In this document: in pieces, positions 2,699 to 34,400 of the stretch
Layout: every line of letters starts with the position of its first letter
Position numbering within the stretch: position 1 is the first letter of the stretch
NCBI GenBank assembly: GCA_043228905.1
Contig: JBHGNT010000016.1
Location: 7,006,001-7,070,000 of the forward strand
Length of the DNA: 64,000 bases
Direction: 5' to 3'
Source of the DNA: Azolla caroliniana
Lineage: Eukaryota > Plantae > Polypodiophyta
Notes under the pieces: model-generated
The model's input: only the letters and a program-made list of their open reading frames with translations
Told to the model about the DNA's origin: nothing
Database searches by the model: none
Translations under genes and position numbers: made by a program

Positions 2699-2890
2699 AG
2701 TTTAGTTTTAGTTTTAGTTTTTAGTAAATTCATGGAAACAAAAAATTTTAAAGAAAAAAATCGTCTCGAGATCTACACTCCTCGGGCTACTCTGTTTTAC
2801 CCAGACGCTCTCTGCTCAATTTCTTCCATGGATTCTTCTCAAACTGCTGGCATCAGAGATAATCTTTAAACAATTCACTTTTGGGTGGCC

Positions 2891-4075
2891 ATGGCAGCTT
2901 CCTCTAGGCGCAATTCTTCGAAGCTTCCATCGCCCGCATCAAGCTATGACACCAAACATAAGAATCGGCGGCGAGGAAGAGTCTTACAGGAGATCTCAGT
3001 CAAGCAAAGCAGGGCTTTGATGCTCATCTTTGCATGTGCTCTTCTCATCCTCATGTGGGTTTTCCATGTGTTCACACCGATTGACCCCCTCGAGGTGATC
3101 ACACCATCGATCGGGTTCAATTTGTCCGAAGCTCTAGCAGACATAAAGATGAGTGATCTTTATGATTCAATTGAATTTGATGATGTTGATGGGGGTGCTT
3201 GGAAACAAGGGTGGGATGTTAAGTATGTAGGAAATGAATGGAACAAGAAGAAGCTTCGTGTTTTTGTCGTCCCACACTCTCACAACGACCCTGGTTGGCT
3301 TCAGACCTTTGAAGAGTATTACCAAGAGAGATCTCGCAAGATTCTATCGACTATTGTTCAGGCACTTCGAAAGGTAAACCATTTTTCATTCTGCATTGTC
3401 TCCATGATATCTGTCTCATCTCGTCTGATTTCCATGTCAATACTAAATAGATTTCCTCTCCATATAAAATACACTATTCGGTTGTTTGAAATTTACAGTT
3501 TTTCATTTACATTTTGTGTCCATGCTCATTGTTTGATATTTACGATCGATGAATACGATGGGTTTACCTCCCCAGGGTTTCAGGGCTGATCTCTGTGTCT
3601 TAAAATACTATTACACTTCATAGCCCAAGAAAGAAATCATAATTAATTATGAGACCAAGCAATGGCATGCTATAAAATAAATGGTGGGAATGTGAATCTC
3701 ATCTACTTCTCCAATGATCTATCAAATATTCAACATTGTGTCCATTTGGATTTTGTCAAAATGCTTATCGTGTCATATTTTTAGTGGTATATACTGTAGA
3801 TTGCTAAGATGGGTTTTCTGGCCTATGGGTCATGGGTGATCTTTGTGGTCTGAACACCACCCTAGAAAATCAAGAGCTACTCTAAAGTTGGCATTGGGCA
3901 TTACATAAAAGGCAATGGGTGGGAAGCGAATTGCATCTACATTCCAAGTGACTTAGCGATATTGATTCATTTCTATCTCACTGTGTTTGGTTATCAAACC
4001 AAATAATTTCTGCTATATCTAGTCTAGATGTAGTTTTTATGCTTTTTTTGAGTGAGTGAGTGAGTGAGAGAGAGC

Positions 4076-4108
<33 letters not shown>

Positions 4109-7100
4109 CATAATGTTCCTGTTGTGATCAATCAAGTTCTCTTGGAACTATTTAGACCCATAATCCATTGTTAATATAGGACAAGCGACGCAAATTTATA
4201 TGGGAAGAAATGTCTTACCTGGAGCGGTGGTGGAGAGATGCAACTGATGCTGAGAAGAGGGATTTTATCGGACTAGTTGAAAATGGTCAGCTTGAAATTG
4301 TTGGAGGTGGCTGGGTCATGAATGATGAGGTATTTTATGCAAATAAGTATGTCGTTTATATCATTTTAATTGTAAGCATACTATTCAAAGCTAGCAGTAT
4401 ATCTATTTTAGGTCAAAAGTGTTAACATACGCGAACTGCACGCACACAGACTTGAGGATAGACAATCATTTTATTTCTATTGATCTGATTCGTATCCTGT
4501 GTTTGTTGTACCATATTTCCTCTAGTTTATCATTATTCTTAGCATGCTTATGGAATGGTTTGTTGTATGTTGTTTCTCATTCAATTGAATCTGAATTTGT
4601 CTTTGGACGCATAAGTTTTTGATTAGATGTTCCAATGGAAATCATGGGAGCCATTTATATGAAATATATCAAAGGAGATGCAAGATTTTTTTCTGATTGA
4701 AACTGAAAAAAATGATAAATTGGATCATGTTTCAACAACGGGCTTATGCGACATTTTTCTTCTAGCTGGCATACAACCAAAACATCTTTATCTATCTTTA
4801 AATGGATATGGAAGTCTATTGATGTACAGTATCTTTTCTGGAAGACTTTTGCTTATAAATGGCATTCATTTGTGTTAATTAAGGGTTTGATAAAGTAAAG
4901 TTGTTGTTCAAAATCCAATTGCTGGAAGAGATTTAACTAACATGTATTCATGGATGTGACAGGCTAATTCTCATTATTATGCCATCATTGAACAAGTATG
5001 TTGTTTTCATTAGCTCATTTTATTGAACTTGTAATGATTATGATTCTTTCCCTAATAGAGTAATTTAATGATTTGTTTTATTCTGCAGATCACTGAGGGA
5101 AACCGTTGGCTTCATGAAACAGTTGGTGCTGTTCCAAAAAACTCTTGGGCTATAGATCCCTTTGGGCACTCTCCAACTATGGCATACCTTTTAAAAAAAA
5201 TGGGCTTCGAAAATATGCTCATTCAAAGGACACATTATGAAGTGAAAAAGGTTCTTGCACAAGAAACAAATCTGGAATTCTTCTGGAGACAAAGCTGGGA
5301 TAAATACAATAAAACTGACATATTCTGCCATATGATGCCATTCTACTCTTATGATATACCACATACTTGTGGTCCAGAGCCAGCTATATGTTGTCAGTTT
5401 GATTATTGGCGTCTTCCTGGGTTTGGCTTGGCAGCACATTGTCCATGGGGCCAGGACCCCCAAAGGATAACTTTGGATAATATCAAAGAGAGAGCTGAAA
5501 AATTATTGGATCAATATAGAAAGAAATCTACCCTATACAAGACAAATACGCTTCTTGTACCGCTTGGAGATGATTTTCGGTATATTACAATTGCAGAAGC
5601 AGATATTCAGTTTGAGAATTATCAGAAGATCTTTGATTATATTAATACACATTCAAAGTTCAAGGCCGAATTGTCCTTTGGGACTCTTGAAGATTACTTC
5701 ATGGCAGCTAAGGTAGAGATGGCAGCCCAGAGAGGGAAGGTGAAATTTCCTTCTCTTTCCGGCGATTTTTTCACATATGCTGATCGACAACATGATTATT
5801 GGAGTGGGTATTATGTCTCACGCCCATTCTATAAGTCAATAGATCGTGTTTTGGAAGAAACCTTACGGGCAACAGATATTTTATATTCTCTATCATTGGG
5901 TTATTGTCAACCATCAAATCAAAGTAGTTTTCCTTTTCCATCAAGTGAGAAGCTAGTAACCGCTCGTCGGACACTTGCATTATTTCAACATCATGATGGC
6001 ATAACTGGCACTGCAAAAAACCATGTGGTTATTGATTATGCAAGAAAGATGCAATCAGCACTTCTGGATTTGCAAAGGTTTATGGCACAAGCTATGGCTA
6101 TCATGCTTGGTAAAGGCTCTTTGGAAGGCATGTGTAGCGATATGGATTTGGATGTATTCACCCCAGAGAAAGATCACAACTCACATGATATGCCACCAGT
6201 TAAGAAGGTCATCAATTTAACAAATGATGAAGTACAGAGAGTGGTGGTTTACAATCCCCTTGAAGAGCCAGTAAATCAGGTCATTATGATCCTTGTGGGG
6301 AGGGCAGATATATGTGTAATGAGTGCTGAATGGGAACCTATTGAAAGTCAATTAAGTCCTGAATGGATGATTGATAAGAGTGGCAAAATCATGACTAGTG
6401 GCAAACACCGTTTGCATTGGCTAGCACGAGTTCCACCAATGGGTATACAAACATTCTTCATTTCAGTTTCAAAGGATTCAATGTCATGCAATGCTGCAAA
6501 GCATGCACAGGTGAAGTTTTCTAACACTCCTGGTACAATATTCTCGTGTCCTTCTCCCTATGAATGCATTCAAATAGAGGAAGATGTAGTTGAAATATGT
6601 AACCAACATCAAGCAATGACCTTCTCAGTTCAAGATGGGCTCTTGAAACGCTTGAAAATTCGTAAGGATGGTCATGGAATTTCATTGGAAGAAGACATTG
6701 CGTTCTACTCTAGTGTTGGGAGTGGAGCTTATCTCTTCAAACCAGTTGGAGAAGCTAAATCTATTGTCAATCCAGGTGGTTCAATGGTGGTTACTCTTGG
6801 GCATCTAATGCAAGAGGTATTTACACATCCTAAAACCTCATGGAACCCTTCTCCAGTTTATCGGAGAGCACGGCTTTACACAGCAATTGATTCTGTTCAA
6901 GCTTTCATGGCTGAAATAGAGTACCATGTGGAGCTGCTTGGTTATGACTATAATGACAAAGAGCTAATTGTCAAATTCGAAACAGATCTCGATACTGAAA
7001 ATACCTTCTTTTCTGACCTTAATGGGTACCAAACCATAGCAAGAAAGAATCGAGAGAAGATCCCTCTCCAAGGAAACTACTACCCGATGCCATCTCTTGC

Positions 7101-7839
7101 ATTCTTGCAAGGATCACAGGGGCAAAGATTTTCACTGCACACTCGTCAAGCACTTGGCGTAACAAGCCTGAAAAGTGGCACTCTTGAGGTAATGCTTGAT
7201 AGGAGGTTAACAAGAGATGATGACAGAGGTATGGGCCAAGGTGTGCTTGATAATCATCCGATGGACATTACTTTTCATATTCTTCTAGAGAGAAATATAA
7301 CATCAGTGCCAGACATTGTTGCATCAACTCCGCGTGTGCCCTCTTTGCTTTCACATAGAATCTCAGCTCAGCTGAACTATCCTATGCATTCTTTTTTCAG
7401 CCGAATTGAGAGCACATCAGCTGCTCAAACAGCCCTTCTTCAGAAGAAGTTTGCACCATTGGCAGTGAACTTCCCGTGTGATTTGCATGTAGTAAGCTTC
7501 AAGGCAGTGAGGTGTGTTGAAAAGATTGAATATGCTCTGACTTTGCATCGCCGAGGATGGGATAATTCGTATTGCCGGAAAGGGCAGACCCAATGCATCC
7601 GAATGTCGGATGAAAATATCAGTGCATTTGATATCTTTGACCATCTGACTGTGTCTTCGGCAAAAGTGTCTTCATTGAACTTGCTACATGATAATGCTAA
7701 AGATTCAAGACACAGTATCGTGAGTAGGAAACAAGGAGGAGGTTTTGCTGATGAGAAAGTTTTCCTTAGTTTGGCTCCTATGGAGATACAATCATTGAAG
7801 CTTAAATTTTCAATGAACCAACAAGTAGGCTTGGTTTAG
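2891..7839 (+). CDS. GMII: Golgi alpha-mannosidase II (GH38); exons 2891-3373, 4180-4329, 4963-4995, 5089-7839; ~1138 aa
   Basis: Type II TM anchor. GH38 motifs VVPHSHNDPGW, FIWEEMSYLERWW, GGGWVMNDEANSHY, WAIDPFGHS, PLGDDFRY and FQHHDGITGT. All introns are GT-AG and preserve the frame. Confidence 0.96.
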
Positions 7840-10609: not shown

Positions 10610-12726
10610 TTTGTGAAAACACACAATTATATATTAATGAATGTGTGTAAAAAACACTACTTACAATGGGTGTGACAATGGAGTATGGTTACCCAATAAC
10701 TACATCACATGGGGTAGTGGAACATGTTGAATTGCCAATAGGCAAGACGAACACTCCACTGAGGAAAGAATTTCCACTTGCTCCAATAAAGAAAATTGCC
10801 ACATTAGTTCTCCCTTCAACTTTCGTAGATATGCTTTCACTCCATGTCTACCATCAAATACTAAAGTGTTGCGCATGTTCCAATTATGACGCAATCCCTA
10901 ATATCTCAGAAATAGAAAAACGATCTCCATCTCGGATTTTAGACCAACCTGTGTAAATTGTGTAAACACCCACTGTCTAGGTGTTAAATAACATCGTGAT
11001 AAATCTTGCCAAATTAAAGAAATGTAACTCCAAATCTGACAAGCAGTTGGACATTGTATAAATCAATGAGTACTATCTTCCATTTGAACAACGCAAAAGA
11101 AGCAATTACCCATTCCTAGTCCACAACGCTTTAGAGCTAATCCCAAAGGCAACTCTCCAATCAAAACTCTCCAAATGAAGACCTTTGCTACACAAGTGAT
11201 AATTTAGAATGCCAACTATGATGTAAGATCGGCCACAACGACGTTTGACCCTGTAAACACCAATCAATCCACGATTGTTCTCTTGTTTGTAGAGGTAAGG
11301 GACCTTGCATCAATGCAATATTTTGTAGTTGTTGCCAAATAAATCCATAATTAGGCAAGATGCGTAATAATTGTCGCGTTTCAACAAACTCCAAAATTCT
11401 TTGAGATGGAGCCTCAACTATATCTCCCACCTCTTTGACCCCCAAACGAAATAAACGATTACATTGAGAGCACAATATCTCCTTTCTTGGCCAACATAAT
11501 AACCGAGAAGACAATGCTCTCTACTAGATGATGGTTTCCATACACATAACAAGAGTGCTTCTTGCCATGAGGTAACCAAGTGTTGAACACATGAAGAGCC
11601 CGGAATCCTAAGTGAAATACATCCATTCAGTAATTGCCACCATGTAGCCTTTATCGTTGACCTCCCATGTGTTAAACCCTTGTTGTCAATGAAATATTGA
11701 ACAATAGATATCCATGGTTGTGCATTTGAAAACATGTCTTCTAATAATGAAAATCTACGAGCCATCATATGCATAAATAAGTTCAATATTCTAGCTCCCC
11801 CCCAAGCGCTTAGGGCTTGCTAGATGATTCCAGGCAACCCAAGTGATTCCCATCTTATCCATCTTCTTCCACAACAAATATTGAAGAGGTTGCAAAACAT
11901 AATGCAAAACCTTCTTTGTCCATGGCAACAATGACAAGTAATATAATATCACAGGTTCCATAATACATTGTACAACCTTCAAGCGTACATGAAACAACCA
12001 AGATTCTGACTTCCAATACATGAACTTATCCCTCAATTTACTAGATATCCATTCAATCAATTGACCATTTGTAACATTCATTCCTAATGGATAGCCCAAG
12101 TGTCGCAATAGAGCCTTTCTTCTCCATGGATCCTTACCATCCTAAACATTCCAAATCCCTTTCAGTACATGATATGAGATTAGACTTCCTCCAATTAATA
12201 TGTAATCCGAAAGCCAATGCAAATTGGTTCCATACAAGCATCCCCTTCTCAAGATGATCTCATGATGCTTGTCAAAACATGAAAGAATAATCAACCAAAT
12301 CTTGTGCTACTAGTTGCCCTCTAGACGAAAGGTGTAGACCCACAATGTCACCATTTGTTGCAAGCCTTGATAGCATCACTAACAAGGGATGTGTAACAAT
12401 AGCAATCAACAATGGGCTAAGAGGACATCCTTGACAAACGGATCTTGTGAGGGAAATATCTGATGTAACTCCCCCATTAAGCATTACTTGAGACATCACA
12501 TCTTGTCCTAATAAAAATATGAGGCGAGACATACGAGGTCCAAAGCCCATTGTATGCATTAATCCAGAAACAAAGGACCAATTAACATGGTCATAAGCTT
12601 CCTCCAAATCTAATTGCACCATAATCAATTCTTGATGAGTGTTTCGAGCATAATCTATGGCCATTTGAACATTCAACACATTATGCCATTTGAATATTCA
12701 ACACATTATGACCATTTGACCATTCA
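10610..12726 (-). mobile_element. L1-clade LINE, 3' segment (RT core to C-terminus), degenerate
   Basis: QLDLEEAYDHVNW, RSVCQGCPLSPLL, RHLGYPLG and WVAWNHLASPKRLGG motifs in broken ORFs. Confidence 0.88.
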
Positions 12727-15700
12727 ACACTCTAGAATATTCTAGGTCATCCTAGAATGTAGAGTAATCTAGAAGGTTTCTAGAGTATTTTAGAAGGTTC
12801 TAGTGTATAGAACACTCTAGAACATTCGAAGTTATTCTAGAATGTAGAGTAATATAGAATATTCCTATGATATTAGATTATATATTCTAAAAACTATACA
12901 TATAAGAATGTTAATACAATGGTTAAGGATTTGACATGTATACAACAAGATCGTAGGTTCAAATCCTTTCAAGGCATGATGTGAGTGTCATCATGACACT
13001 ATCTCCCTTCTTCGACGACACGTCTCACGGGTTGTAGGGTTTGTATTAGGACCTGGTTTATGAGAATATTGGTGATGAAATGCAGTGACCATATCCACAA
13101 CATTGGAAAGATTTGCGGCAGGTTCCCATGTTCGATCATTGGGGGTATAGCCTAGCCAATCGACCCAATAATACAGCTTGTTGCACACGATTTTAGAATT
13201 GAGAATGGCAGCGACCTCAAATTTGGGTCCATCCAAGAACTCAACTGATGGGGGGGGTGTCGTAAGACGACCCGGAATTGAACTTGCAGTATAAGGTTCC
13301 AAAAGGGATACATGAAACACCGGATGAAGACGCATGTGTAGAGGGAGGCCAAGACGAAATGCAACATCACTTATCTTACCAGTGATCATGTAAGGGCCAA
13401 AATGTTGGTAATCCAATTTATGACAAGGCCGAGTGGTCTTGATGTTGTGTTGGAGAAGCCATACACGATCCCCAACGCAGAACTTTTTTTAGGAGTCTAG
13501 GCGATGACGATCCGCAAGCCTCTTGTGTGTAGCTTGAGCATCATGCAAATTGTGGAGAATGGTAGCATGAATTTCTTGGAGGCAACTAAGACAATCCTCA
13601 ACAACAGGGTTGGTAGGAACGTGTGGATGCACATTCATCGTCCACTGAGGATGACAACCCGTATTTGCGAAAAATGGGGAATATCTTGTAGAAGAATGGG
13701 CTAAGCTGTTGTAAGAGAATTCAACCAAGTGCAAACAATCAACCCAATCACCTTGTTGATATTTAATGAAACAATGAAGATATTGCTCCAAAGTATGTTT
13801 GGTACGCTTAGTTTGGCCATTAGTCTCGGGATGATAGCCCGAAGAAAGCTTAACCTAAATGTGGAGAAGTTTGAGCATGTGCTTCCAAAACTTTGAGATG
13901 AATTGTGGACCATGATCACTAATAATATCATCCGGCAGACCATGATGCCTAAATACCTCCTGCTTAACGAGATCGACCACCTCTTGACTAGTAATAGACT
14001 TCGTACATGGCAAGAAGTGTGCCATTTTGGTAAGTTGATCCACAATGGTGAGAATTGCATCAAAACCTTTTGAAACTGGGAGATCAGTAATGAAATCCAA
14101 GGATATAGACTTCCAAGGATTTTCCGGAATGGGAAGTGGTTGTAGTAAGCCATAGGATCGGTGTTGAGGATTCTTTGATCGACAACATATATCACAGCTG
14201 CGAACATACTCCTCAACAAAATGATGAAGGCGGGGCCATCAATAGTGTCGAGAAATTAATTCTAGAGTTTTGCGAACTCCAAAATGACCAACCATTGGTG
14301 AGTCATGGCAATGTTGTAAAACTTGTAGTCGTGGGGGACCATCAGGAACATACAATAGGTTTTGCCGAAACAAAAAACCACCATGCCAATAGAACTGATG
14401 ATAGTCATTACGAGAGTTTTTCGACTGTGAGCAAGAAGCACGATCTGGGACGATATGATCCAAAACATCCTTGGTGAATTCATCAGTGGCCTTATGATCT
14501 CGAATGGAATCAAGAAGAGTGGAATCTTCAAGCATTGGTATGGCATTAACTACCATTAATCGTAGGTGATTAGGACCTTGGAAAAGGATTTGTTTTTTAT
14601 GCTTGAATGCAGCTTCCTCGGGACGAAGTTCCATATAAGAGCACCGGGAAAGAGCATCTGCTTTGCCTTGTTGCATCCCAGGGCGATATATGATGACAAA
14701 GTCGAAGTGAGTAAAAAATTGCGCCCACTGGGCTTGTCGCCGACTCAAGACTCGAGCAATTTGAAAATATGCTAGGTTCTTATGATCGTTGTAAACAATG
14801 ATCCGTTGAGAAGAACCTTCTAGAAAATGTCGCCATTGTTGAAAAGAATCGGTTTGCCATATTCTCATCAATATATTCCCACAAAGTCTTTAGCTCTATA
14901 GGTGAGAGAGATTATAAATTGGGCCATGTGGAGGTTCTTTCCCTGGTTGTAAGTCAATAGGGCAGTCGTATGGCCGATGCTCCGGCAATGTATTGGACTT
15001 CACCTTGTCAAAGACATCTGAGAATTCCTTGTATTTCTATGGTAGTTTAATGTCCGCTTCATGTAAAGTGGATGATGGAGTTGCTACTATTGCGAAGACC
15101 AACATGGCCTCGTTCCCCCCTTCCTCACATAACTGTCGTAGAGAGATGGTCAATAACTCAAGGGATCTAGTATCACATGTCGGAGAGAGGGATGCGAGGT
15201 TTGTGCTTTTTTCCTAGGTCTCCTCAATCATCCAATCAATCTTCGGGTTATGGATTTTAAACCAATGGAGACCACATACTATTGGGTGTTCCGGACTGCG
15301 AATAATCATGTTGAAAGAGATTATGTTTGCCAAATTGCCAAGAACTATCCGAATTGGCTCAGACCCCTTGACTATATCTCCTGATGCTATGGGACAACCA
15401 TCAATGACTCCTACGGCTACAAGGCTTGGGAGCTTATTCAAGAGGATGTTTTGTGACAAGGCATATTCACGATCCATGAAACAAGAGTTGGCTCCAGAAC
15501 CTAGGAGGGCAGAGGCTAGGACTCGATGACATGTAAATGTGGTAAGCTCGACTTGTGCAGAAAAAACTCGACTCACGTCATTTGATGAAGTGGAACCACG
15601 ACTAGGAACTAACTCTACATAGCTGGGATGGTCCAACCAAATGGCTCCTAGTTTGGCCGGACTTACTCGTTTAACACATCCTCTAATTGGCTCAAGACAT

Positions 15701-17264
15701 CGATTCTATGTTCATGGCATGGACTATGAGGCTTACTTATGTTATTAGAAGTAACAATGGAACTCGAATTAGGGTTGTCATGGGCACTTACTTGGTATAC
15801 TTGACATCTAGGTTTATGTGGACAATTTACAACTATATGTCCTAGACCGCCACAATACATGCATAGGCAATGCGCTCGACGACGTTGCTTCTCAGCATCT
15901 GATAAAGGCCCACGACGTTGTGTTGACTCTATTTCCATCAGAGTTGGGCCATTCCTTGTAATGGGTCTGGAAACTTGTGGAGGTGTTGCGACTACGGAAG
16001 CGTAACATTTGTTGGCGCTCAGAACGACGCTCAAATAGGCGATTATCACATCGCACAGCTCGACTAATGGCCTCTGTAAGTGACTTCGGATCTTCAAGGA
16101 AAGGAAGAAGAAGATCTTTGACATCATTTCACAAACCTTGACGGAATTGATCCATTAAGGCTGCCTCATCCCAAGGGATATCGCATGCCAAGAGACGAAA
16201 ATCAGCTGCGTAAGCCGATGCGGGATGATCTCCTTGTCAAAGCCTTCGGATCTTGTTTATTGTTGTCCTAGTGCTGTCGGTGTTTCCGAAACTAGCTTGA
16301 AACTCCTTAACACATGCCTCGAAATCCTCTGACAATGGCGATTTCTTCTCGAGAAGTGGTGTGAACCATGCTAACGTCATACCGCATAGCAAAGTTCCCA
16401 CTAATCCCACACGAGTAGCGTCAATTGGATATCGATTGGGATGTAGCTGAATAACCAGACAAACTTGATTCAAAAAGCCTCGAAATAAAGACCTTGTACC
16501 ATCAAACTTGGGGGAGGCTAATCTTGGGTTCTTTAGGGGATTTCTGAGCCCATGGCGCTTGTTCTCATAATGATAATATAGTTGCCTCGAGTTGGTGAAC
16601 CCTTTTGATAATTCTTCATACTGTTGAGCTTTTTCGGCGCTCATATGTTTTAGGTCTCCAAGTAGCCTTTTATTTTCATTCTCTAATGCCACACATTTAT
16701 TCGTGAGCATGTCGAGCTCAGAAAGAACACGCATATACTCTTGTTTGCTCACAGACTCCATAGTTTATGAGGGGAGAGGAGAAGGAAGAAGAGAACTTGT
16801 TAGGGTTTGTAGAAGAGGAAGAAATGAAAAAAAAAAGGTTCAAACTGTCAAGAGAGAGAGAGAGAAAGAGAAACATTGTATTGTAGAGTAAAATGGATTG
16901 TAAGGAGTAGGCAATATAGTGCTACAAAATGGCGTTGAACCAATTTAGGTTTGGGATGATTGATAGATCCCTATTTATAAGTAATAGAGAACACTCTAGA
17001 GTATTCTAGGTCATCCTAGAATGTAGAGTAATCTAAAAGGTTTCTAGAACTTATTCTAGAAGGTTTTAGTGTATAGAACACTCTAGAAAATTCTAGGTTA
17101 TTCTAGAATGTAGAGTAATATAGAATTTTCCTATGATATTAGATTATATATTCTAAAAATTATACATATAAGAATATTAATACAATGGTTAAGGATTTGA
17201 CATGTGTACAACAAGGTCGTGGGTTCAAATTTTTTTGAGGCATGATGTGACTGTCATCATGACA
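12727..17264 (-). mobile_element. Ty3/Gypsy chromovirus 'A' (Tcn1-like): gag-PR-[RT deleted]-RNaseH end-INT-chromodomain
   Basis: 5' LTR 16846-17264 (TGTCA...TGACA). Truncated 3' LTR 12727-12998 preceded by PPT GAAGGGAGATAG. Gag CCHC CMYCGGLGHIVVNC, protease LLGSGANSCF, integrase MDFITDLP and chromodomain YYWVDWLGY...TWEP. Confidence 0.93.
12905..12975 (+). promoter_or_regulatory. tRNA-like Pol III A/B-box cassette in the Gypsy A 3' LTR (second copy at ~17171-17240)
   Basis: A-box-like TAATACAATGG at 12912-12922 and B-box GGTTCAAATCC at 12956-12966, 44 nt start to start. Confidence 0.6.
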
Positions 17265-18394
17265 AAACCATATTGGTTGGGATGTATCAACTTTTGTAAT
17301 CTATTTGCCAAGACCTTTGTAAATATCTTATAGAACTCCCCTATCAAAGAAATAGGTCTTCATTGATGAAATAACTCAGGAGATGCCACGTTTGGAACTA
17401 ATTTAATTAGACCAACCTTCCAAGCTTGAGGCATATGAACCGAATCCCAAGAATATTGGAACATCAAAGTTAAGGGCCCCTCAAAAATGTTCGAATATCG
17501 CTTAAAAACTTCATTTGTTAAGCCATCCCAACCAGGGCTCTCACCACTAAGAAGATGCCTTAAAACCATGTCCACCTCATCCTTAATGAAATCTGCATCC
17601 AATTCATGGCTAATGAGGTCATGCACAATACATCCAACCACATCATAAAACTCATGATGTGCTCTACTCGCCTCATTTGTGAAATCAGCATTCAATTCAT
17701 GACTAATGAGGTCATGCACAATACATCCAACCACATCATATAGCTCATGACGTGCTCTACTCATCTTATTTGTCATTAACAATTGTGGGCCAATCAACTC
17801 CTTAAAGTAATGAACGCATATGTCAATTATTATAGTAGGATCCACGATCAATTCATCCCCTTGTTTCATATTTACCACATTAGATCGAGCATAAGTAGGA
17901 TGTAATGCTTGCAAAAACAAATGATATTGACATTGATTATCTATGAGCCCATCCCTAAGTTGTCGCATTTTAGCATACCGATAACTTTGACATTGCAACT
18001 GAGAAATAATAGCTTGCAATTGACTCTAGATATCCAAAAACTCCTCATCTAATAGTGCTTGTATCAATAATACATTACACTTGGAGAGAACTTGTGCGAA
18101 TTGTTGAAGAATACCTCTTCTTCGTTGAGCATTCGTTACTCCATACATACGATGAATGATCTTAATGTTTGGTAATGTGATATCCCATGCTTTAACTCCT
18201 TTAAGATTCACTTGTTGTGAAAAAATTCCCAAATTTTGCTCCATGAGAGAATCAAAGTGAGGTTGAAGCAAAAGAGAAGAGTTAAAGGGTAATGGAGGCT
18301 TTCCAAGTAAGGATCTATACATGTCAATTGGATGATTACAAACCTCCAAAGAAATAGGAAAGTGATGTACAGTTCCACATCTTGTAAAACTTTC
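17265..18394 (-). mobile_element. L1-clade LINE, middle segment (endonuclease end to RT start)
   Basis: HHFPISLE, SPGWDGLTNEVF, GLIKLVP and HPNQYGF motifs. Contains an in-frame 93-bp duplication at ~17570-17762. Confidence 0.88.
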
Positions 18395-18640
18395 TATCAC
18401 GAACAAGTATAATAAAGCAAAGCAAAGACAAGACTAGAACGCAAGAGAGAGGAAAAGAGCAAAAACTCAACTTATGGAATCCGTAACTGTTGTTGTTCAC
18501 CTTGATTAGAATCAAGGTGCACTTGAGTATTTATACAAGAAGGTAGGGCTATGTAAGCCAGCTAGAAATAGAGTATGCATGAGGATGCAAACTTCCAATG
18601 TTCAATCTACATTACATGAAGTTGGATCTTATATAAGGAT

Positions 18641-18712
18641 GTATATGTAGCTCAATTGGTAGGGTTGCCCAATAGAGACCATGAGGTCTTGGGTTCAATC
18701 CTTACCTTCTTC
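18641..18712 (+). promoter_or_regulatory. tRNA-like Pol III A/B-box cassette in the Gypsy B LTR
   Basis: A-box TAGCTCAATTGG at 18648-18659, variable-loop-like GAGGTC, and B-box GGTTCAATCC at 18692-18701. Confidence 0.75.
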
Positions 18713-21700
18713 TGTGGCATATGTCTATGACATTATCCTCCTTCTAAGGCCGCCTCTTAACACCCGAACGGGTTATGAGGGTATCGTTGATGAAAAGCGT
18801 GAATTGCCTCTAGCACATTTTGTAAATGTGTAACTGGTTCCCATGTGGTGTCCGAAAGAGGGTAACCTTTCCATGAGACCAAGTATTGAAGTCTTCGGCG
18901 ACGCAAGCATGAGTCGAGGATCCGAAAACCTCGTACTCCTCACCTATCGATAATTCCACGAGCGACGATGGAGGAGGTTGTCGTCCCGGCATGCGAGAAG
19001 GATGGTAGGGTTCAAGGAGAGAGACGTGGAAAACATTGTGAAGCCGAAATGTGGGGGGAAGCGCTAACCGAAAGGCAACTGGGTTAACGCGCTCGAGGAT
19101 ACGGAAGGGGCCTAGCTTTTTGTAGTCAAGCTTCGCGCAAGGACGGGTGGTTGCGATGTGGCGACGTAGCAACCAAACCATGTCACTAACTGCGAAGGTC
19201 GGCACTACCAAACGATATCGGTCAGCGTGAGCTTTATATTGTTTGCCGGCGGCACGAAGCTCAAGGGAGAGGTCACGATGGACATCTTGTAAGGTGTGAG
19301 GATGCCTCTCGGTCGACGGATTGACGGAAGTCTCCGGAATGGAAATGCTGAAACGAGGGTGGAAACCGTAGTTTGCAAAGAATGGGGAAACCTTAGTGGA
19401 GGCATGGATACTATTATTGTAGGCAAATTTCGCCACGGTAAGGAAGTCCACCCAATCATCTTGTTGGTAGCTGACTGTACACCGAAAATATTGTTCAAGG
19501 ATTTGGTTGACTCTTTCGGTTTGGCCATCAGTTTGAGGGTGATGCGCATTAGAAAAGTTCATGGAAGTCCCGAATGTCTATAGAAGTCGGCGCCAGAAGT
19601 GGGAGATAAATTGACGACCTTGATTAGAAGTGACATCCTCAGGGAAGCCCTGTAATCAGAAGACATTTTTCAGAAAAAGGTCAGTTGTCTCCTCCCCCGA
19701 AATGGTTTTCGAACATGGGACAAAGTGAGACATCTTCGAAAATTGATCGACGACCACTAGCACCGTGTCATGGTAACCGACCCGAGGAAGGTCGGTGAAA
19801 AAGTTCATGGAGAGAGATGCCCAAGGTCGACTGGGAATTGGAAGTGGGTGGAGAAGGCCGTATGGACAGTGGTGAGCCGCTTTGGAGCGAGCACAAACGT
19901 CACAAGTTTTGATAAATTCTTTGACCAATTTCCAAGATTGGGGACGCCAAAACCCCCGAGACAGTAACGTTAGCGTTTTCGTGACCCCAAAGTGTCTGAT
20001 AAGAGGATCATCATCGCAAGTTTGTACTACTCGGATGCGATGTGTGTCAGTTGGTACGTAAAGGAACTGATTACGATAGAGTAGCCCATCCTGAGTTGTA
20101 AAGTGACTAAGATCCGAGCTTTGCATTTCCTGGGATGGGTTGTTGAGGTGCGCCATGATGTCAGTAGCGAAAGGGTCTGACGTGGCTGATTGGGCGATCT
20201 TGTTGAGAAAGGAATCATCATGCACCATATAGGTTGCGAACATGTGGAGTTCATAGGGCCGCAAAAAACAATGTGATAGCTGAGAATATGCGTTGTCACC
20301 TGGGCGTAGTGCAAAGTCGAGTTGCCGAGAGAGAGCATCTGCTTTCCCATGTTAAACATCGGGTCAAAACAAGATTTCGAAGTCGTAGTCGGCGAGAAAA
20401 GATGACTAGCGAGTCTGCCTCCGATTCAACATACGAGTGGTGGTGAAATAGATGAGATTCTTGTGGTCGGTCAACACCTGAATACGATGTTGGGCCCCAG
20501 TCAGATAGGTTCACCATTCGACAAAGGCCGAGATGATAATTGCAAGCTCCTTGTCATAGACCGGATATTTGATTTCTGGGCTTATAAATTTCCGAGAGGA
20601 GACGGCGACCAAATGCAGGGTGCCATCGTCGTCGGGCTGAGACAAGACTGCACCTATGGCAAAGTCGGAGGCGTCAATTTCAACCTAGAAAGGGCAGGCG
20701 GGGGCGGAGAGAAAAGCTGCTTTGAGGGCATTAAAAGCATTGAGTGTCGCGAGGGTCCAAAGAAATGGAGTATCTTTCTAGGTAAGTTGGATGAGATGTT
20801 GGACTAGGGATGAAAACCCGTCTATAAATCGTCTGTAAAAATTTGCAAGACCAAGAAACGATTGTACCTCTTTCAACCAAGTCGGGAGAGGCCAATCAAT
20901 GATTGCCGCTACCTTGCCTTCATCCATTGTGATCCCGGTAGGTGAGATCATGTACCCCAAGAATTCGACAGAGGTTCTATCGAATTTGCATTTCTCACTT
21001 TTGGGGAAGAGCCCATATTCCTAGAGTTTGGTGAGAACCAGCCGGACATGTTGTGTGTGCTCCTCCCAGTTGGTAGAAAAAACTAGGATGTCGTCAAGGT
21101 AGATGCCCACGAAATGATCGAGATAGTCTCCAAAAAGATCGTTCATCTTGTGTTGGAAGACAGCTGGAGCATTGGTAAGGCCGAATGACATCACTTTGTA
21201 CTCGAAATGTCCATAGCGTGTCCAAAAAGGCAGTTTTCCACTCGTCCCCAGGCTTGATGTGCACCAAATTGTAGGTGCCCTGAAGGTCGATTTTGGAGAA
21301 GATGTGCCCAGTTTTGAGTCAATCAAGGAGCGTTGGAATTAAGGGCGATTACGAATCGTAACTTTGTTGAGACCCCGATAATCGACACATAAGCGTAAGG
21401 AGCCGTCCTTCTTTTTGACAATTAAGATTGGTGCCCTAGCCGTTCATTTGGAGGGTTGAATAAAGCCCTTCGCGAGATTCTCAGCCAGATATGTGCGGAG
21501 ACCTTCAAGTTCGGGTTCAAATAACCCATATATAGGATTGAATGGGGGATGCGCGCCATCTTGGAGTTCGATTAGGTAATCGTAGGGGCGATGAGCCGGG
21601 AACCGATCGACATTCCGCTTTTCGAAGATCTCAGAAAAATCGCTATATCAAACGAGTAAATTGCTGACAGGAATGGTGATGTCCCCCGACACAACGGCCA

Positions 21701-22123
21701 ATCTAGAGACCAAACCGGACTCGACCGTAACGGAATCAAGAGAGTGTCGTGACCTAGTAGGAATTGGCCTTAATGGAAAAGTGATGGAGTGGTTACACCA
21801 ATCCACCGTCGGATTGTGTATCTCCAACAAAGATAGCCCCAACACAATTGAATGTCGAGGGGTTGCGATGAGGTAGAACGTGAGTTCCTCTTGACGCACC
21901 CCGACTTGAAATACCAATGGGAGAGTAGCTGCCCCCAAAGAAAGATCCCGACCGCCGATTGCGTTCATCCATTGTGATCTTGGTAGGTGAGATCATGTAC
22001 CCCAAGAATTTGACAGAGGTCCTATCGAATTTGCATTTCTCACTTTTGGCAAAGAGCCCATATATCCCAGAGTTTGGTGAGAACTAGCCGGATATGGTGT
22101 GTGTACTCCTCCCAGTTTGAAGC

Positions 22124-22529
22124 ATAGTTGTTAAAAACACGTATTCTACGTTTAGAGTACGTTTTAGTATACTCTGAAGTATTCTACACGTATTCTACGT
22201 TTCAGAACTGCCGTTCTTTAAATTTTGACGTATTCTACGTATTTAACAAGTATTTATCATTTCAAAAAATATTTTCTTTTTTTTGAAAAAAAAAATCTTT
22301 AAATTTTAAGAAGTGTTTAAGGTATTTTACAAGTATTCTACATGTATTCTAAGTATTCTACACGTACTCTAAGTATTCTAAACGTATTCTACACGTACTC
22401 TAAGTATTTAACGCACTTTATCTATAAAATACATATTCTAAGTATTTAAAAAAAAGAAGTTAGAATACTTGTAGAATATTTAGAATATGCATTGTACGCG
22501 TATTTTATGCTAAGTATTTTACAACAATG
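22124..22529. mobile_element. hAT-type MITE inserted in Gypsy B RT
   Basis: TIRs CATAGTTGTTAAAA / TTTTACAACAATG, degenerate 8-bp TSD GTTTGAAG / GTTGGAAA, and internal (A/C)GTATTCTA repeats. RT sequence resumes on both sides. Confidence 0.82.
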
Positions 22530-23796
22530 GTTGGAAAAATAACTAGGATGTCGTCAAGGTAGATGAACACGAAATGATTGAGATACTCTCGAAAAATATC
22601 GCTCATCATGTGGTTGAAGACGGTCGAAGTGTTGGTAAGGCCGAATGGCATCACTTTGTACTCGAAATGTCCATAACGCGTCCGAAAGCCCGTTTTCCAC
22701 TCGTCCCCAGTCTTGATGTGCACCAAATTGTAGGCGCCCCGAAGGACGATTTTGGAGAAGATATGCCTAGTTCGGAGTCGATCGAGGAGTGTTGGAATTA
22801 AGGGCAAGGGATAACGATTACACATTGTAACATTGTTGAGACCCCGATAATCACCACATAAGCGTAAAGAGCCATCCTTCTTTTTGACAAATAAGATTGG
22901 TGCCCTGACCGGTGATTTGGAGGGTTGACGGCTTCCCTGAAGATGTCACTTCTGATCGAGGTCCTCAATTTATCTCCCCTTGTTGGCGCCAACTTCTATG
23001 AACTTGTCAACCGAGCACCACCCTCAAACTGAACGCCAAACTGAAAGAGTCAACCAAATCCTCGAACAATACGTCGGGTGTATAGTCAGTTACCAACAAG
23101 ATGATTGGGTGGACTTCCTTGCCATGGCGAAAATTGCCTACAATAATAGTATCCAATGTCCATGCTTCAACTAAGGTTTCCCCATTCTTTGCAAACTATG
23201 GTTTCCGCCCTTGTTTCAGCATTTCCATTCCGGAGATTTCCGTTAATCCGTCGGCTGAGAGGCGTGCCCACACCTTACAAGATGTCCATCATGACCTCTC
23301 CCTCGAGCTCTATGTCGTTGACAAACAATATAAAGCTCACGTAGACCGTTATCACTTGGTCGTGTCGACCTTTGCAGTCGGTGACATGGTTTGGCTGCTA
23401 AATCACCACAGTAACCACCCATGCTTGCGCGAAGCTTGACTACAGAAAGCTAGGCCCCTTCTGTATCCCCGAGCGCGTTAACCCAATCACCTTCTGGTTA
23501 GCACTTCCCCCCACATTTTGGCTTCACAATGTTTTCTACGTCTCTCTCCTCTAACCCTACCATCCTTCTCACATTCCGGGGCGACAACCTCCACCGCCGC
23601 CACCCGTGGAATTATTGACAGGTGAGGAGTACAAGATTGACCGGATCCTCGACTCCTGTTTACGTCGCCGAAGACTTCAATGCTTGGTCTTATGGAAAGG
23701 TTACCCTCTTTCAGACGCCACATGGGAACCAGTTACACACCTTGCGTGTTAAGAGGCGGCCTTAGAGGGGGGATAATATCATAGACATATGCCACA

Positions 23797-23868
23797 AAGG
23801 GAGATAGGGATTGAACCCAAGACCTCATGGTCTCTATAAGGCAACCCTTCCAATTGAGCTACATATGC
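23797..23868 (-). promoter_or_regulatory. tRNA-like Pol III A/B-box cassette in the second Gypsy B LTR
   Basis: Minus strand reads TAGCTCAATTGG (23861-23850) ... GAGGTCTTGGGTTCAATCCC (B-box 23817-23807). Confidence 0.75.
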
Positions 23869-26800
23869 ATTCTTGTACAAATCCAACATCATGTAGTGTA
23901 GATTGAACATTGGAAGTTCCTAGCTTGCATGCATCCTCATTGAACTAGCTTGCACACATTCTCCTACATTCTCTATTGCATGCATCCTCATGCATACTCT
24001 ATTTCTAGTTGGCTTACATAGCCCTACCTTCTTGTATAAATACTCAGGTGCACCTTGATTCTAATCAAGGTGAACAAGACCAGTTACAGATTCTATAAGT
24101 TAAGTTCTTGTTCTTTTCCTCTCTTTTGTTTTCTAGTCTTGTCTTCGCTCTGCTCTATTATACTTGTCCGTGATAATTTGTTCACCATGCCCTCTTCTTG
24201 CTACCATGTCGGGCTCCGTCAACAACCTAAACCAAGTCATGGCAGCCTTGCAACAACTTTAGCTAGAGAATGAAATCCTTCGGGAATCATTACGAGAGTT
24301 GTAATGCGGCACTTCAAGAAAACCACCACCCGCCCAGTCACAACCACCATTGGCACCTAGCATGACCACGTCCTCTTCCCATCCATATGTCCTTGAACCA
24401 ACCATTAGCCTACCAGACAAATTCAATGACACGAGGGTGTATCTTCACGGCTTCATCAACCAAATTCGGCTTATCATCTGGTTACAGCCCTAACAGTATA
24501 CTAAAGACTTTTTTCGGGTTCGGCTTGTTGGCATGGTTCTCTCCAGGCCAGCGCAAGCGTGGTTTGCACCCTTGATCGAGACCTCATCCCTCTCTTAGAA
24601 AACTTCATCGCTTTCATTGAGGAGGTCGAAGCGACATTTGGCGAGACAGACCGGCGACGAACAACACTCACAAAGCTTTATTCTTTTCAATAAGGCTCAC
24701 GTCCAGCCTCGGTCTATGCCTCAGAGTTCCGTCAGATTGCTTGCAATGTCAGTTGGGATGACCAAGCCCTATGCGCCCATTTCCTTCATGGTCTCTAAAA
24801 TGATGTCAAGACTCTTCGCTCAAACTTCCCGGAACCCACATCATCGTTTCAAGTAATCTCCCAAGTTGTCCAGTGTGACAATCGTCTCTTCGAATTTCAT
24901 CAAGAAGAACGAGGTACTCATGGGTCTCAGGCTTCTTCCGAAAACGCATCAATCGCCAGGCCCTACTTGTCTCCCATGCAAACCTTACCATCACCCAATG
25001 ATACCCATACCACGATAGAGGTTGATTTCCATACCCCGATGGAGATCGACCACACTCAATTCCAACTACTAACTGAAGCCCAACGCCAACATCGTTTGGA
25101 CAATGGACTCTGTCTCTATTGTGGCAACCCCAGCTATGTCATCTGTGGCACCAATTCCATCGTGCACGTCTTGTGGAAGTTCGTCAACAACAGGAAAACG
25201 ACCAAGTTCGACTGCAGTAGGAGCCATGTTGCTGGTCACTTCCGTTACTCACCTTCTCCATGCTCCTACAAGTCCATTCAGCCATTAGGAGGGTTCTCTT
25301 TGCAAGTACATCTTTGTTTGGTTCGACTTCAATACATTCTCATGCCTTGCTCGACTCTGGAGCATCAACTTGCTTTATCGATAAATCGTTTGTCCACGCA
25401 CATAATATCCACACCGTCCGCACATCACAACCCATATCCATTGACGCAATCGGCGGTCGGGATCTCTCTTCGGGGGCGGTTATCAAAGCTACTCTCCCAT
25501 TGGTATTTCAAGTCGGGGTGCATCAAGAGGAACTCATGTTCTACCTCATCGCAACCCCTCGACATTCAATTGTGTTGGGGCTATCTTCGTTGGAGATACA
25601 CAATCCGACGGTGGATTGGTGTAACCACTCCATCACTTTTCCATTAAGGCCAATTCCTACTAGGTCACGACACTCTCTTGATTCCGTTGCGGTCGAGTCC
25701 GGTTTGGTCTCTAGATTGGCCGTTGTGTCGGGGGACATCACCATTCCTGTCAACAATTTACTCGTTTGATATAGCGATTTTTCTGACATCTTCAAAAAGC
25801 GGAATGCCAATCAGTTCCCGGCTCATCGCCCCTACGATTACCTAATCGAACTCCAAGATGGCGAGCATCCCCCATTCGGTCCTATCTATGGGTTATTTGA
25901 ACCCGAACTTGAAGGTCTCCGCACATATCTGGCTGAGAATCTCGCAAAGGGCTTCATTCAACCCTCCAAATGAACGGCTAGGGCACCAATCTTATTTGTC
26001 AAAAAGAAAGACGGCTCCTTACGCTTATGTGTCGATTATCGGGGTCTCAACAAAGTTACGATGCGTAATCGTTACCCCCTACCCTTCATTCCAACGCTCC
26101 TCGATCAACTCAAAACTGAGCATATCTTCTCCAAAATCGACCTTCAGGGCACCTACAATTTGGTGCACATCAAGCCTAGGGACGAGTGGAAAACGGCCTT
26201 TTCGGACACGCTATGGACATTTCAAGTACAAAGTGATGTCATTCGGCCTTACCAACGCTCCGGCTGTCTTCCAACACAAGATGAACGATCTTTTTGGAGA
26301 CTATCTCGATCATTTCGTGGGCATCTACCTTGACGACATCCTAGTTTCTTCTTCCAACTGTGAGGAGCACACACAACACGTCCGGCTGGTTCTCACCATA
26401 CTCTGGGAATATGGGCTCTTCCCCAAAAGTGAGAAATGTGAATTCAATAGGACCTCTGTCGAATTCCTGGGTTACCTGATCTCACCTTCCGGGATCACAA
26501 TGGATGAACGCAAGGTAGCGGCAATCACTGATTGGCCTCTCTCGATTCGACTGAAAGAGGTACAATCGTTTCTTGGTTTTGCAAATTTTTATAGACGATT
26601 ATAGACGAGTTCTCTTCCCTAGTCCAACCTCTCATCCAGCTTACCCGGAAGGTTACTCCATTTCTTTGGACCCCCGTAGGACACAATGCTTTTAATGCCC
26701 TCAAAACATCTTTTCTCTCTGCCCTCGTGTTAGTCCACCCCGACCCCACCCGCCCTTTTTAGGTTGAAACCGACGCCTCCGACTTTATATAGGTGCGGTC

Positions 26801-27012
26801 TTGTCTCAACCCAACGAAGATGGCACCCTACATCCGGTCGCCTTCTACTCTCAGAAATTTATAGCCCCGGAAATCAATTATCCAGTCTACGACAAGGAGC
26901 TTGCAACTATCATCTCGGCCTTCGCCGAATGGCAACCCATTCTGGTTGGGGCCCAACATCGTATTCAAGTGCTGACCGACCACGAGAATCTCATCTACTT
27001 CACCGCCACTCA

Positions 27013-31422: not shown

Positions 31423-34400
31423 TCAAAGTGGCCCCATATCCATCACAAGTTCATCAATCAAATCACTAAGAATGTGGGTCTCAACTTCCATGGAAACATC
31501 ACAAGCCTCCTGGGCGAAATCCACCCACTTCCCACTACCGGTGTTCATGGAGTTCTCTACCATATCATCAACATTCATGCCACATGACATGCCTTTCCAA
31601 TCATCAAGTTTTCTATGTACACCCATTGCCATGTATGATGTGGATGATAATGAATGATGCTCTGCTAGCCATGATTTGCTCTTCATATCAAGGTCTAATG
31701 CCTCCTTCACACAATCAAATACTAGCTTTCTATACCCTCGTGTGCCTTCATCATAGCTACACCACATGTCATCATTGTTTGACAATTTATCAGGCTCATT
31801 TAAGCCACATTTCCACATGTGCTTAATATCCTTTTCTAGCTTGAAGAATAAGGAAGATTCAATTAGGGTCCCAGCGAACCCTAATTTAGGAGAGAAAGAG
31901 ACATATGGAGATAAGCATGCGCTGCTCAGGATATGATTTATATATGCTCTTTCACTTTGTATTGTGTTATTTGCCTTTGACGGTACGAATGAATAGGCAT
32001 CACCTTTCAAATGTTTCTCTGCAACGAGAAAACAAGAAAATATTTACTATTACTAATAAAGATGAAAGGGGGAAATAAAAATAACTAAAAATGGAAGGAT
32101 TAATACCAGTAGCTTTTGTTAATACAGGAATTTGTAAGTAATTTGAATCATTATCCTGATAGGAATCTTGATCCCAGCATTTGTCATTGCATTCTCGAAG
32201 GGTGTGCTTTCCTGTAGGGGCCAACTTTTGAAGAACCTGCATAAGTTAAAAACATTGAATGGATGTGAATCTCTTTTCTCCCTCACTATCTCGCAGTATC
32301 GATAATAAATTTATATTCATCTAAGATTTAAACCAAAGTGAATTTACAAACATTTAAGATTTAAACAGACATTGTTTGTCCAATCAGAAGACGCTGAGAA
32401 AAGTGGCATACTTTGGTGAGGCTAAAGTTGAAGATGACACATTAAAATTGCTGAACTATGATGGAGTTGAACTGATAAAAAAAGAGAGAAACAAATCTAT
32501 CTATTTAAGGCTATCATAACTTTCATATTTGAAGGCAAACCCAAAATATTTCGTGTTAAGTATTAATCAATGTTCATCACACGATGATCTTATTTAGATT
32601 TTGTGGGATGTAACTTAGGACATATCAAAGTTTAGTATTCATTGCTCTACAAGAAGTAGCAAAAGGTAATGCAAGACTTCAAATACTGCGCAAGAGAAAG
32701 ACTTATAATGAGTCGATCAATATCCCAATGCTTCACTTTGTTGCTAATCTTCACTTAAGTCATTGCCTCAGTTTAGTTAGTTAATTTCAAATCTGCCAGA
32801 TTCTAACACAATGCTTAAATTTCAACTATTTCTCCTGATTTTAAAAGAAATATGCATTGTTCATTATCTTTACAGGCACATTCTCATACGAAAAAATATA
32901 ACCATTCTCATACCTCTGTTGTGTCATCTGAGAGTTTGTTGAATATACATGTAGAACCGGTAGAATCACCAGAGTAACACCTACTGTGGTTGTCACCAGT
33001 ATTTTGTCCAAGAGTTCCTAGATTGTCCCCATTAGCATCAAAAGAAGCATTCTCTTTTATAGTTCTTAGATTGCTGGATATATCAAATCCTGGAGTGGGT
33101 GCATGTCTTGATGATTTTTCCCCACTGATATCTTCTTCTTTGAATGTAGACTGATCCATAGATAAATTTAATGACAGAAGCAATTCCTGAAGAATGGTGG
33201 CAGTTGATTTCCCAGAATATGAAACTGCATGTATCTTTCGGGTCCTACTAGTAGAGGCTGTGTCTTCAGTTTCTTCTGTAGAAGACTTACAGATGCTTTG
33301 ACATCTACTTTCAGTGATCTCATCATGACAAAGCTTGGATACCTCCTCTCCCTCAACTGTTTCATCATAGCCAATGCTACTTTCATCATCCTCAGAATGT
33401 CCTGATGTGAAATAATTATATTGCTCATTCTGGCATTCTTCTCGTGTTTGAGTATCAGAATTCAAATCAGCATAATAAGTGCTGGAGATGTCTTCAGCTC
33501 TATGGTTATCCTCTGTGATGCAAGAGGCAGAGGATTCATTCTCAATATCATCATCAAATGACTCCAAGCCAGGAAGATTAGTTCCTCTGTTTTGCTTCCA
33601 AAGTATAGCATTTTTGTCTATAGAACTGATACTTCTTTCCTCTATTGAAGTGATACCTCTTTCCTCTATTGATGTGATGCCACTTTCCTCTATCGAAGTG
33701 ATGCCACTTTCTTCTATTGAATTGGCGCTATCTTGTTGTGTTAAAATCTCCAATTCATCTGTGCCTCCTCTCACCGCTGCCCTCTTTATAAGCAAAGACT
33801 TCAAAAGTGGGGAAGAATTCCTTGTTTCTTTTCCAGACAGGCAGGGTATCCTATCATTCTTAATGCTGATATTGTTGTTGATACAACTGTCTTTGGATTT
33901 CTCTGTACTCTCTTGAAGACTGTCACTTTGGTTTAGATGCAACTTCCGTGTGAGTGGGATTTCGTCTTTTGCCTTATTTCTCTGATGTGACCCCTTTGCC
34001 AGTTTTGACTTCACCCCTATTGGAACACAGGGCTCATTATGGTTGCATTTCCCATAATCTTTGCCTTGTGTACTTTTACCTTGCATTAATCTTTGTACAA
34101 TCTCATCTTGACGGTTCGTATTGTTTCCCAAAGATGTATGCCCTCTTTTTCTGTTGCCTGTTTGAATCATTGATGTGGATGTCTTTTCATTTCGAGCTTT
34201 TCTATCTTGCTTAACCCCAGTTTGAGCTAATGTATGATTGTGGCGAGCACGATTTGTTGATACACGCTGACGTTTAGAGCAAGTAGGTGTAGAGAGAGTC
34301 TCCTCTTCCTTTGATGCACTTCTCTCTTTCTCAGATAAAGATAGGACTGAAGTCAGATTATCATGAAGCAAAGAAGGGATGCACCTACGTTTCGAGCTAG

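Follow-up and report, generated by a model that had tools for sequence, protein, structure and literature searches.

Pol III promoters in LTRs have so far been described for non-coding TRIMs, in which they drive the element's own RNA. In Helenus/TRIMp3, tRNA-derived A and B boxes are kept in the LTRs while the cloverleaf is mostly nonfunctional, according to the available sections of Kojima 2024 (PMC10886601). Sequences of two families in the accessible part of its supplement also keep the variable-loop letters before the B box, and in them the cassette lies in the sense orientation near the 3' end of the LTR, before a T run. The same sections describe Helenus as non-coding, 311 to 1263 bp long, and tRNA-primed. 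Cassandra and Ajax TRIMs have likewise maintained a small-RNA-gene promoter in their LTRs for a long time, but theirs is a 5S-derived type 1 promoter that lies in sense in non-autonomous elements and drives their own RNA (shown for Cassandra), as stated in the available text of PMC10886601. That text also remarks on partial tRNA likeness in "not a few" Repbase LTRs, its analysis covering TRIMs only, and argues that autonomous partners must use Pol II.

Among autonomous elements, Tcn1 chromoviruses of the Tf1/Sushi group carry an aromatic-cage chromodomain at the integrase end and are predicted to be self-primed, as described in the accessible portions of PMC6317226 and PMC2864245; Tf1-type self-priming is predicted for most Tcn1 elements in the former. 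In those portions, neither Neumann 2019 (PMC6317226) nor Novikova 2010 (PMC2864245) mentions a module of tRNA-like or Pol III type in the clade. In Ty3, part of the bipartite PBS lies in U3 and complements the T and D arms of the tRNA that serves as primer (PMC5371799, available part). A/B-box DNA, in mobile form too, serves as an actual or proposed chromatin boundary in tDNA/ETC insulators (PMC12409998) and B2 SINE boundaries (PMC8136502); in the sections at hand, these are host genes or SINEs of yeast and mammals.

We analyzed a window of 64,000 nucleotides from Azolla caroliniana (the whole stretch of DNA studied), which contains one copy of an LTR retrotransposon, element A, and a rearranged second family, family B. 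Unlike Helenus, these fern elements have gag-pol with a chromodomain, self-priming complementarity, and a sense TATA box, and their tRNA-like cassette is antisense, lies at the 5' tip of the LTR, and has no shared terminator. They resemble the Tcn1 clade, as it appears in the available text, in the chromodomain, the predicted self-priming, a non-seed plant host, and an LTR of ~400 bp, a likeness by features, our trees being built from window elements and fetched loci. They differ from Ty3 in having no tRNA-type PBS, and from the yeast and mammalian boundaries in that the module sits inside the LTR of an autonomous element, where a boundary role is proposed. In openly accessible papers, to which our search was confined, we found no description of autonomous LTR elements of plants with an antisense A/B module.

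The window also holds host genes: a Golgi alpha-mannosidase II-like gene (GH38; 2870-3589 and 5059-7839), a LONGIFOLIA/TRM-like gene (VARLMGL, DUF4378; 31423-35181), and a DUF620 gene (49262-49807). The best named matches of the alpha-mannosidase II frame at 5059-7839 are from Adiantum and Ceratopteris (65-68%), with seed plants, lycophytes, and liverworts at 52-55%; the closest matches being in ferns, the host is therefore itself a fern. The elements comprise the following features:

16846..17264, minus strand: complete 5' LTR of element A, 419 bp, TGTCA...TGACA
12726..12998, minus strand: 3' LTR of element A, U3 part alone (without TATA, R, and U5), 92% to 16990-17264 over 275 nt
12999..13013, minus strand: polypurine tract (PPT) of element A
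12991..13488, minus strand: integrase C terminus with SH3_Tf2-1 and a chromodomain with aromatic-cage residues (Pfam, alignment, and PDB matches)
16237..16764, minus strand: 5' part of gag (DUF4939 above cut-off; Retrotrans_gag and Ty3_capsid below)
16973..16979, minus strand: TATA box of the sense promoter of element A
16934..16941, minus strand: predicted Pol II start and self-primer of element A, complementary to the PBS, 38 nt past the TATA start
16837..16845, minus strand: self-priming-type PBS of element A, which lacks TGG and complements the predicted 5' end of the RNA
18395..18732, minus strand: family B LTR B1
23777..24175, plus strand: family B LTR B2, with TATA at 24035, predicted start at 24069, and a self-priming PBS behind it at 24178-24186

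On the minus strand, element A thus reads 5' LTR, gag, pol remnants, integrase end, PPT, and 3' LTR, with an internal region of ~3.8 kb that retains gag and pol domains; open frames of 1044 to 1235 aa are present in the relatives L001 to L005 and L008. The best PDB matches of the chromodomain are LHP1, MPP8, and HP1, and judged by these matches the domain is HP1/LHP1-like. A decayed high-copy LINE-like repeat occupies 11500-12725 and 17265-18390, into which element A was seemingly inserted; at its left junction, the LTR end and the target duplication are lost. Family B is rearranged over 18395-27011: opposite a 3' half on the minus strand stands a plus-strand copy in the order integrase end, LTR, gag, protease, RT, and RNase H, an arrangement such as a one-LTR circle, auto-integration, or a tandem copy would leave. 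The integrases of A and B are 51% identical over 108 residues. The U3 of element A contains TTCTAGAA arrays (12730-12850 and 16990-17125) made of nGAAn inverted units, which recur in L005, L006, L007, and L053 and are absent from L003, L004, and family B; we take these units to resemble heat-shock elements.

Complete LTRs have a sense TATA box, followed 30 to 40 nt on by a stretch complementary to the PBS. At 5/5 readable LTR-internal junctions, none with TGG, the PBS is complementary to the predicted start of the RNA, and the match is 12 nt long in L004 and L008, 9 nt in L018 and B2, and ~8 nt in A. The self-priming stretches of L004 and L008 have different letters, both sides having changed together, and matching changes in the RNA start and the PBS are found in L008 and family B. 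Such paired changes (16837-16845/16934-16941, 24069-24077/24178-24186, L004, L008, and L018) speak directly, by comparison between families, for Tf1-type priming in chromoviruses of ferns, and from these pairings the elements look self-primed. Because of the sense TATA box and the self-priming complementarity, the tRNA-like cassette is neither the element's promoter nor its primer.

The boxes themselves lie at the U3 tips of all four LTRs of element A and family B in the window:

12912..12922, plus strand: A box of the 3' LTR of element A (tRNA positions 8-19), 8/9 scored letters
12948..12952, plus strand: variable-loop-like letters (tRNA positions 44-48), one letter changed in this 3' LTR copy
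12956..12966, plus strand: B box of the 3' LTR of element A, 10/10 scored letters
17178..17188, plus strand: A box of the 5' LTR of element A
17222..17232, plus strand: B box of the 5' LTR of element A, final two letters changed
18648..18659, plus strand: A box of B1, 12-nt type, 9/9 letters
18692..18702, plus strand: B box of B1, ending 30 nt from the LTR tip
23807..23861, minus strand: A box (23861-23850) and B box (23817-23807) of B2, 19/19

In element A, the A box reads TAATACAATGG (12912 and 17178) and the B box GGTTCAAAT(CC/TT) (12956 and 17222), both on the plus strand and hence antisense to the minus-strand element, with 44 nt from start to start; the 11-nt B box ends 32 nt before the LTR tips at 12998 and 17264. 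The pairs of family B, 18648/18692 on the plus strand and 23861/23817 on the minus strand, are also 44 nt apart, antisense, and at the U3 tip. These positions bear out the original prediction that both families carry the same cassette in the same orientation and spacing; of the tip distances that it gave, 32 nt holds for A, and the 31 nt given for family B becomes 30 nt when both are measured in one register. It had also named absence of an A box from family A as a point against a conserved, selected architecture. The family A box lacks G10 (a G there stays below the 8% listing level in every DNA run) and has T8, A14, R15, Y16, G18, and G19, so that an A box is present; the box type differs between families, with 11 letters in A and 12 in B.

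We scored A-plus-B pairs against textbook letters (maximum 19, spacings of 38 to 55 allowed) and took the chance level from 100 block-wise dinucleotide shuffles of the window. Three window sites reached at least 18, all within the LTRs of element A and family B, against 0.04 per window expected from shuffles. The fourth copy (17222) scores only 16, a level that chance gives 6.2 times per window, because of its CC>TT change in the B box; this change is rare within the family, C making up 88-99% of depth in 4/4 DNA runs. The module was not found in the two copia-type LTRs of the window or in the 39136/52629 repeat. A further A/B-like pair at 55813-55866 (minus strand; spacing 43, score 16, within chance), with TGTCATG ~90 nt beyond it, is not matched by the cassette profile described below and is possibly a worn solo LTR or SINE.

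To see how far the module extends, we fetched relatives by integrase protein only, blind to the LTR, using 53 aligned integrase-end proteins as the query. The 79 metagenome loci, from the best 80 of 574 confirmed matches, included 55 with a PPT-TG start, which by rule was absent in 24; five loci were too short to score (L001, L009, L016, L025, and L078), leaving 50 LTRs, 10 in the clade of family A (by tree; L053 by LTR likeness) and 40 outside. Among these best 80 of 574 matches, an antisense score of at least 16 was reached by 8/10 LTRs in the A clade and 0/40 outside (Fisher p 8e-8; 2e-6 after near-duplicates were dropped). The remaining two clade members, L003 and L018, score 15 and 14, and the sense strand never exceeds 14 among A-clade LTRs, so that the predicted enrichment by strand is borne out. 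The optimal A-to-B spacing is 43 to 44 nt in 10/10 A-clade LTRs, though 38 to 55 was allowed. The A box has 6-9/9 letters across copies; the B box has 8-10/10 in the four window LTRs and 7-10/10 in the ten related ones. All 15 copies (4 in the window and 11 in loci) are antisense. The cassette-bearing loci all come from one record-name series and may therefore represent a few related hosts.

The distance from the B box to the LTR tip varies from 15 to 48 nt across 11 families (10 of the A clade plus family B), so the expectation of an identical position did not survive, although fixed strand and near-constant spacing did. A TAAG(A/G)ATG-like motif, which had been proposed just upstream of the cassette, occurs in 0/10 related LTRs. 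The closeness of the B box to the U3 end, 15 to 48 bp, would suit a role on unintegrated cDNA, to whose U3 end the boxes might bring Pol III factors, or a role as landing pads for elements that target Pol III genes. We consider such roles very improbable: no insertion was seen upstream of the cassette in the 4 window LTRs or in 10 scorable loci, and no tRNA gene lies in the window or in 20 scanned loci.

Across 111 loci (510,246 bases), all four sites scoring 18 are antisense LTR tips, and score 17 is reached at three LTR tips and nine scattered sites. A profile built from the 11 families recovers 15 LTR tips at E <1e-4 and nothing else below E 0.5 in 574 kb, with no match away from LTR tips. 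A held-out profile, made without family A and its two closest relatives, recovers family A at E 4e-7 and 2e-5; a profile of the A clade alone reaches family B only at E 0.07 and 0.24. The 40 related chromodomain elements without the module include the nearest plant-like neighbors L014, L015, L039, L054, and L055, and the module was likewise absent from 2 distant loci from viral contigs and 30 from prokaryote assemblies. The latter (L082 to L111) are contigs bearing eukaryotic chromovirus integrase ends, most likely through binning contamination. At their LTR start, L014, L015, and L039 have a 27- to 28-nt tandem unit containing antisense A-box-like and B-box-like pieces; from this repeat, L014 scores 14 in antisense (spacing 43, distance 30, p ~0.29) and was counted negative, and the match may be a worn copy. 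The LTR tips of A, B, L002, L004, L005, L007, L014, and L039 form a short palindrome or hairpin from the terminal TGTCA; we rejected this hairpin as part of the module, since it also occurs in the cassette-negative L014 and L039.

We then compared the cassettes of the 11 families, numbered as a tRNA. T8, A14, A44, T47, G53, and T54 are kept in 11/11 families, and T16, G18, G19, T20, A22, G46, T50, T55, A58, and C61 in 10/11. G10 of the A box is kept in 4/11 and lost in 7/11; other key letters are broken in single families (L006, L009, L012, and L018). The letters with the greatest weight in TFIIIC affinity, C56 and R57 (PMC11811891, available part), are kept in 9/11 and 11/11, respectively. 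On average, two families are 0.88 identical at the ten invariant tRNA positions, a figure inflated by the alignment of box positions on their own score, and 0.70 at positions 44-51, which are unscored and are the fair check; within them, positions 44-48 are conserved between families although they lie outside the scoring letters. The anticodon arm (0.39), acceptor arms (0.31), and upstream DNA (0.41) compare with 0.26 to 0.36 from composition alone, and four-fold sites of pol with 0.29 to 0.50 within the clade and 0.19 to 0.32 to family B. A and B have 10/10 invariant positions in common, yet 2/14 acceptor positions.

These comparisons bear on whether the cassette lacks any current function and is a relic left by an ancient tRNA or SINE insertion or by repeated chance capture. 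The cassettes do fail tRNA models, and single copies accumulate C>T and G>A changes as the rest of the LTR DNA does; within family A, variation at 8% or more is confined to 24/205 positions, too sparse to reveal selection on the boxes. Between families, however, box letters remain 0.70 to 0.88 identical where four-fold sites of pol are near saturation and flanks are at the composition level, and length differs by one base at most. The relic explanation is thereby largely refuted between families, and we regard it as the least probable of those considered. Being lineage-wide, fixed in strand and spacing, and conserved far beyond neutral sites, the cassettes are not two chance SINE insertions in decay; the original claim of a conserved, selected LTR architecture stands in that form, without the identical position and the upstream motif.

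What is kept is not a tRNA. Neither ARAGORN nor the Rfam tRNA model called any cassette copy a tRNA, and neither found a tRNA gene in the window or in up to 20 scanned loci. Paired cells number 30/77 in the acceptor arm, 20/55 in the anticodon arm, 28/44 in the D arm, and 38/55 in the T arm, and pairing was not above arm-swapped controls in any arm (p 0.18 to 0.68). With the acceptor and anticodon stems of the cloverleaf not kept and the tRNA finders negative, a functional tRNA was rejected. The pattern points to selection on a DNA promoter module kept as letters rather than on a tRNA, and it agrees with the one described for Helenus in Kojima 2024.

The letters might alternatively act in the mRNA, where the cassette could pair with the D and T arms of a cellular tRNA and aid folding, packaging, or strand transfer. 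The position in U3 just after the PPT and the polarity match those of Ty3 (PMC5371799, accessible part), and positions 44-61 are a fairly continuous conserved stretch. Conservation of the A box is nonetheless patchy (8, 14-16, and 18-20), like that of a protein site; the 7 departures at the ten invariant positions include 0 of the G>A or T>C changes that wobble would tolerate; and self-priming complementarity at every readable junction, without TGG, means that no tRNA primer is needed. On balance, tRNA pairing appears quite unlikely.

Another alternative is a working Pol III promoter whose RNA is itself selected. From the 5' LTR, it would make a short outward transcript, and from the 3' LTR an antisense transcript across the PPT and chromodomain that could tune expression or silencing. 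The A box, the B box, their spacing, and the AT-rich upstream DNA are all retained, and the same letters, including 44-48, are kept in Helenus LTRs, which the available sections of the Helenus study treat as Pol III promoters. DNA upstream of the A box has an AT content of 0.80 to 0.90 in the 10 A-clade families and 0.68 in B, and AT-rich upstream DNA is typical of plant tRNA genes (PMC13437025, available part). Against a selected RNA, the 11 families have no shared terminator, product, or conserved fold. The first run of four T after the B box comes at 0 to 40 nt in 6/11 families and at 224 to 530 nt in 3, with none within 600 nt in 2/11; the run is inside the LTR in 3/11 families only; and in family A no four-T run precedes the LTR tip, save in the mutated 5' copy. 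A search for a shared T-run terminator among the 11 families was negative. Of the sequencing runs guessed to be RNA, X21 gave 4 contigs, 3 on the family B LTR and 0 on A, which carry no strand or start information and speak neither for nor against transcription; X22 gave no contigs on the elements, and X18 looks like DNA. We judge this RNA-based explanation unlikely.

A tRNA-derived A/B pair, conserved in autonomous fern chromoviruses, thus likely still docks the Pol III machinery, to judge from the letters that have been kept. The reading that we favor, tentatively and at a shade under even chances, is that the cassette binds TFIIIC and TFIIIB on integrated DNA as a boundary that would keep the Pol II promoter open once the chromodomain integrase has placed the element. 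The integrase would likely direct insertion into repressive chromatin; TFIIIC and TFIIIB would dock at the U3 tip of the integrated LTR; and the docked factors could then form a boundary between the flanking chromatin and the Pol II promoter 200 to 250 bp further in. Because reverse transcription copies U3 to both ends, each new copy would bring its own boundary. What the sequences show is the boxes, their strand and spacing, the AT-rich upstream DNA, the conservation, the loss of cloverleaf pairing, the lack of a shared terminator, the intact sense TATA box, and the self-priming complementarity; factor binding, barrier activity, and insertion into repressive chromatin are inferred. The HP1/LHP1-like chromodomain counts in favor. 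In yeast, heterochromatin barriers that depend on TFIIIC include tRNA genes and ETC sites (PMC12409998, accessible sections), and the barrier reading leans on evidence from yeast and mammals rather than from plants. Counting against it, 40 related chromodomain elements do without the module. Moreover, since a B box alone suffices for a barrier, the kept A box and the tight spacing would fit a real transcript equally well.

Trees of window elements and fetched loci (RT-RH-INT quick trees and FastTree on integrase) bear on how both families came to carry the cassette. The RT-RH-INT trees hold the A clade together (SH-aLRT 99 to 100) and leave it in an unresolved fork with family B, a deep separate branch, and an L013/L039/L054 group whose members are cassette-negative or unscored. 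In the FastTree of integrase sequences by themselves, A and B group together at 0.82, and the AU test of an A+B clade (p 0.134) neither rejects nor shows that clade. The cassette may have been gained once, perhaps with subsequent loss, or twice.

A selected antisense module needs a job other than those known from TRIMs, because its carriers are coding and Pol II-driven. It is conceivable, though doubtful, that an autonomous heterochromatin-seeking lineage has equipped its LTR with a tDNA-type insulator, such that its copies insulate themselves and seed thousands of outward TFIIIC/Pol III sites. These sites may also swell the high tRNA-like counts of at least one fern: for Azolla filiculoides, >7500 tRNA genes and >10,000 tRNA-like sequences are reported (two reviews and a database preprint). 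Whichever role applies, the cassettes give rise to false tRNA-like calls in the annotation of ferns. If they are transcribed, they would yield an element-encoded antisense RNA. If they are barriers, they would offer a natural system, present in high copy, for testing tDNA insulation in plants and would explain how chromodomain elements remain active once inserted into silent chromatin.
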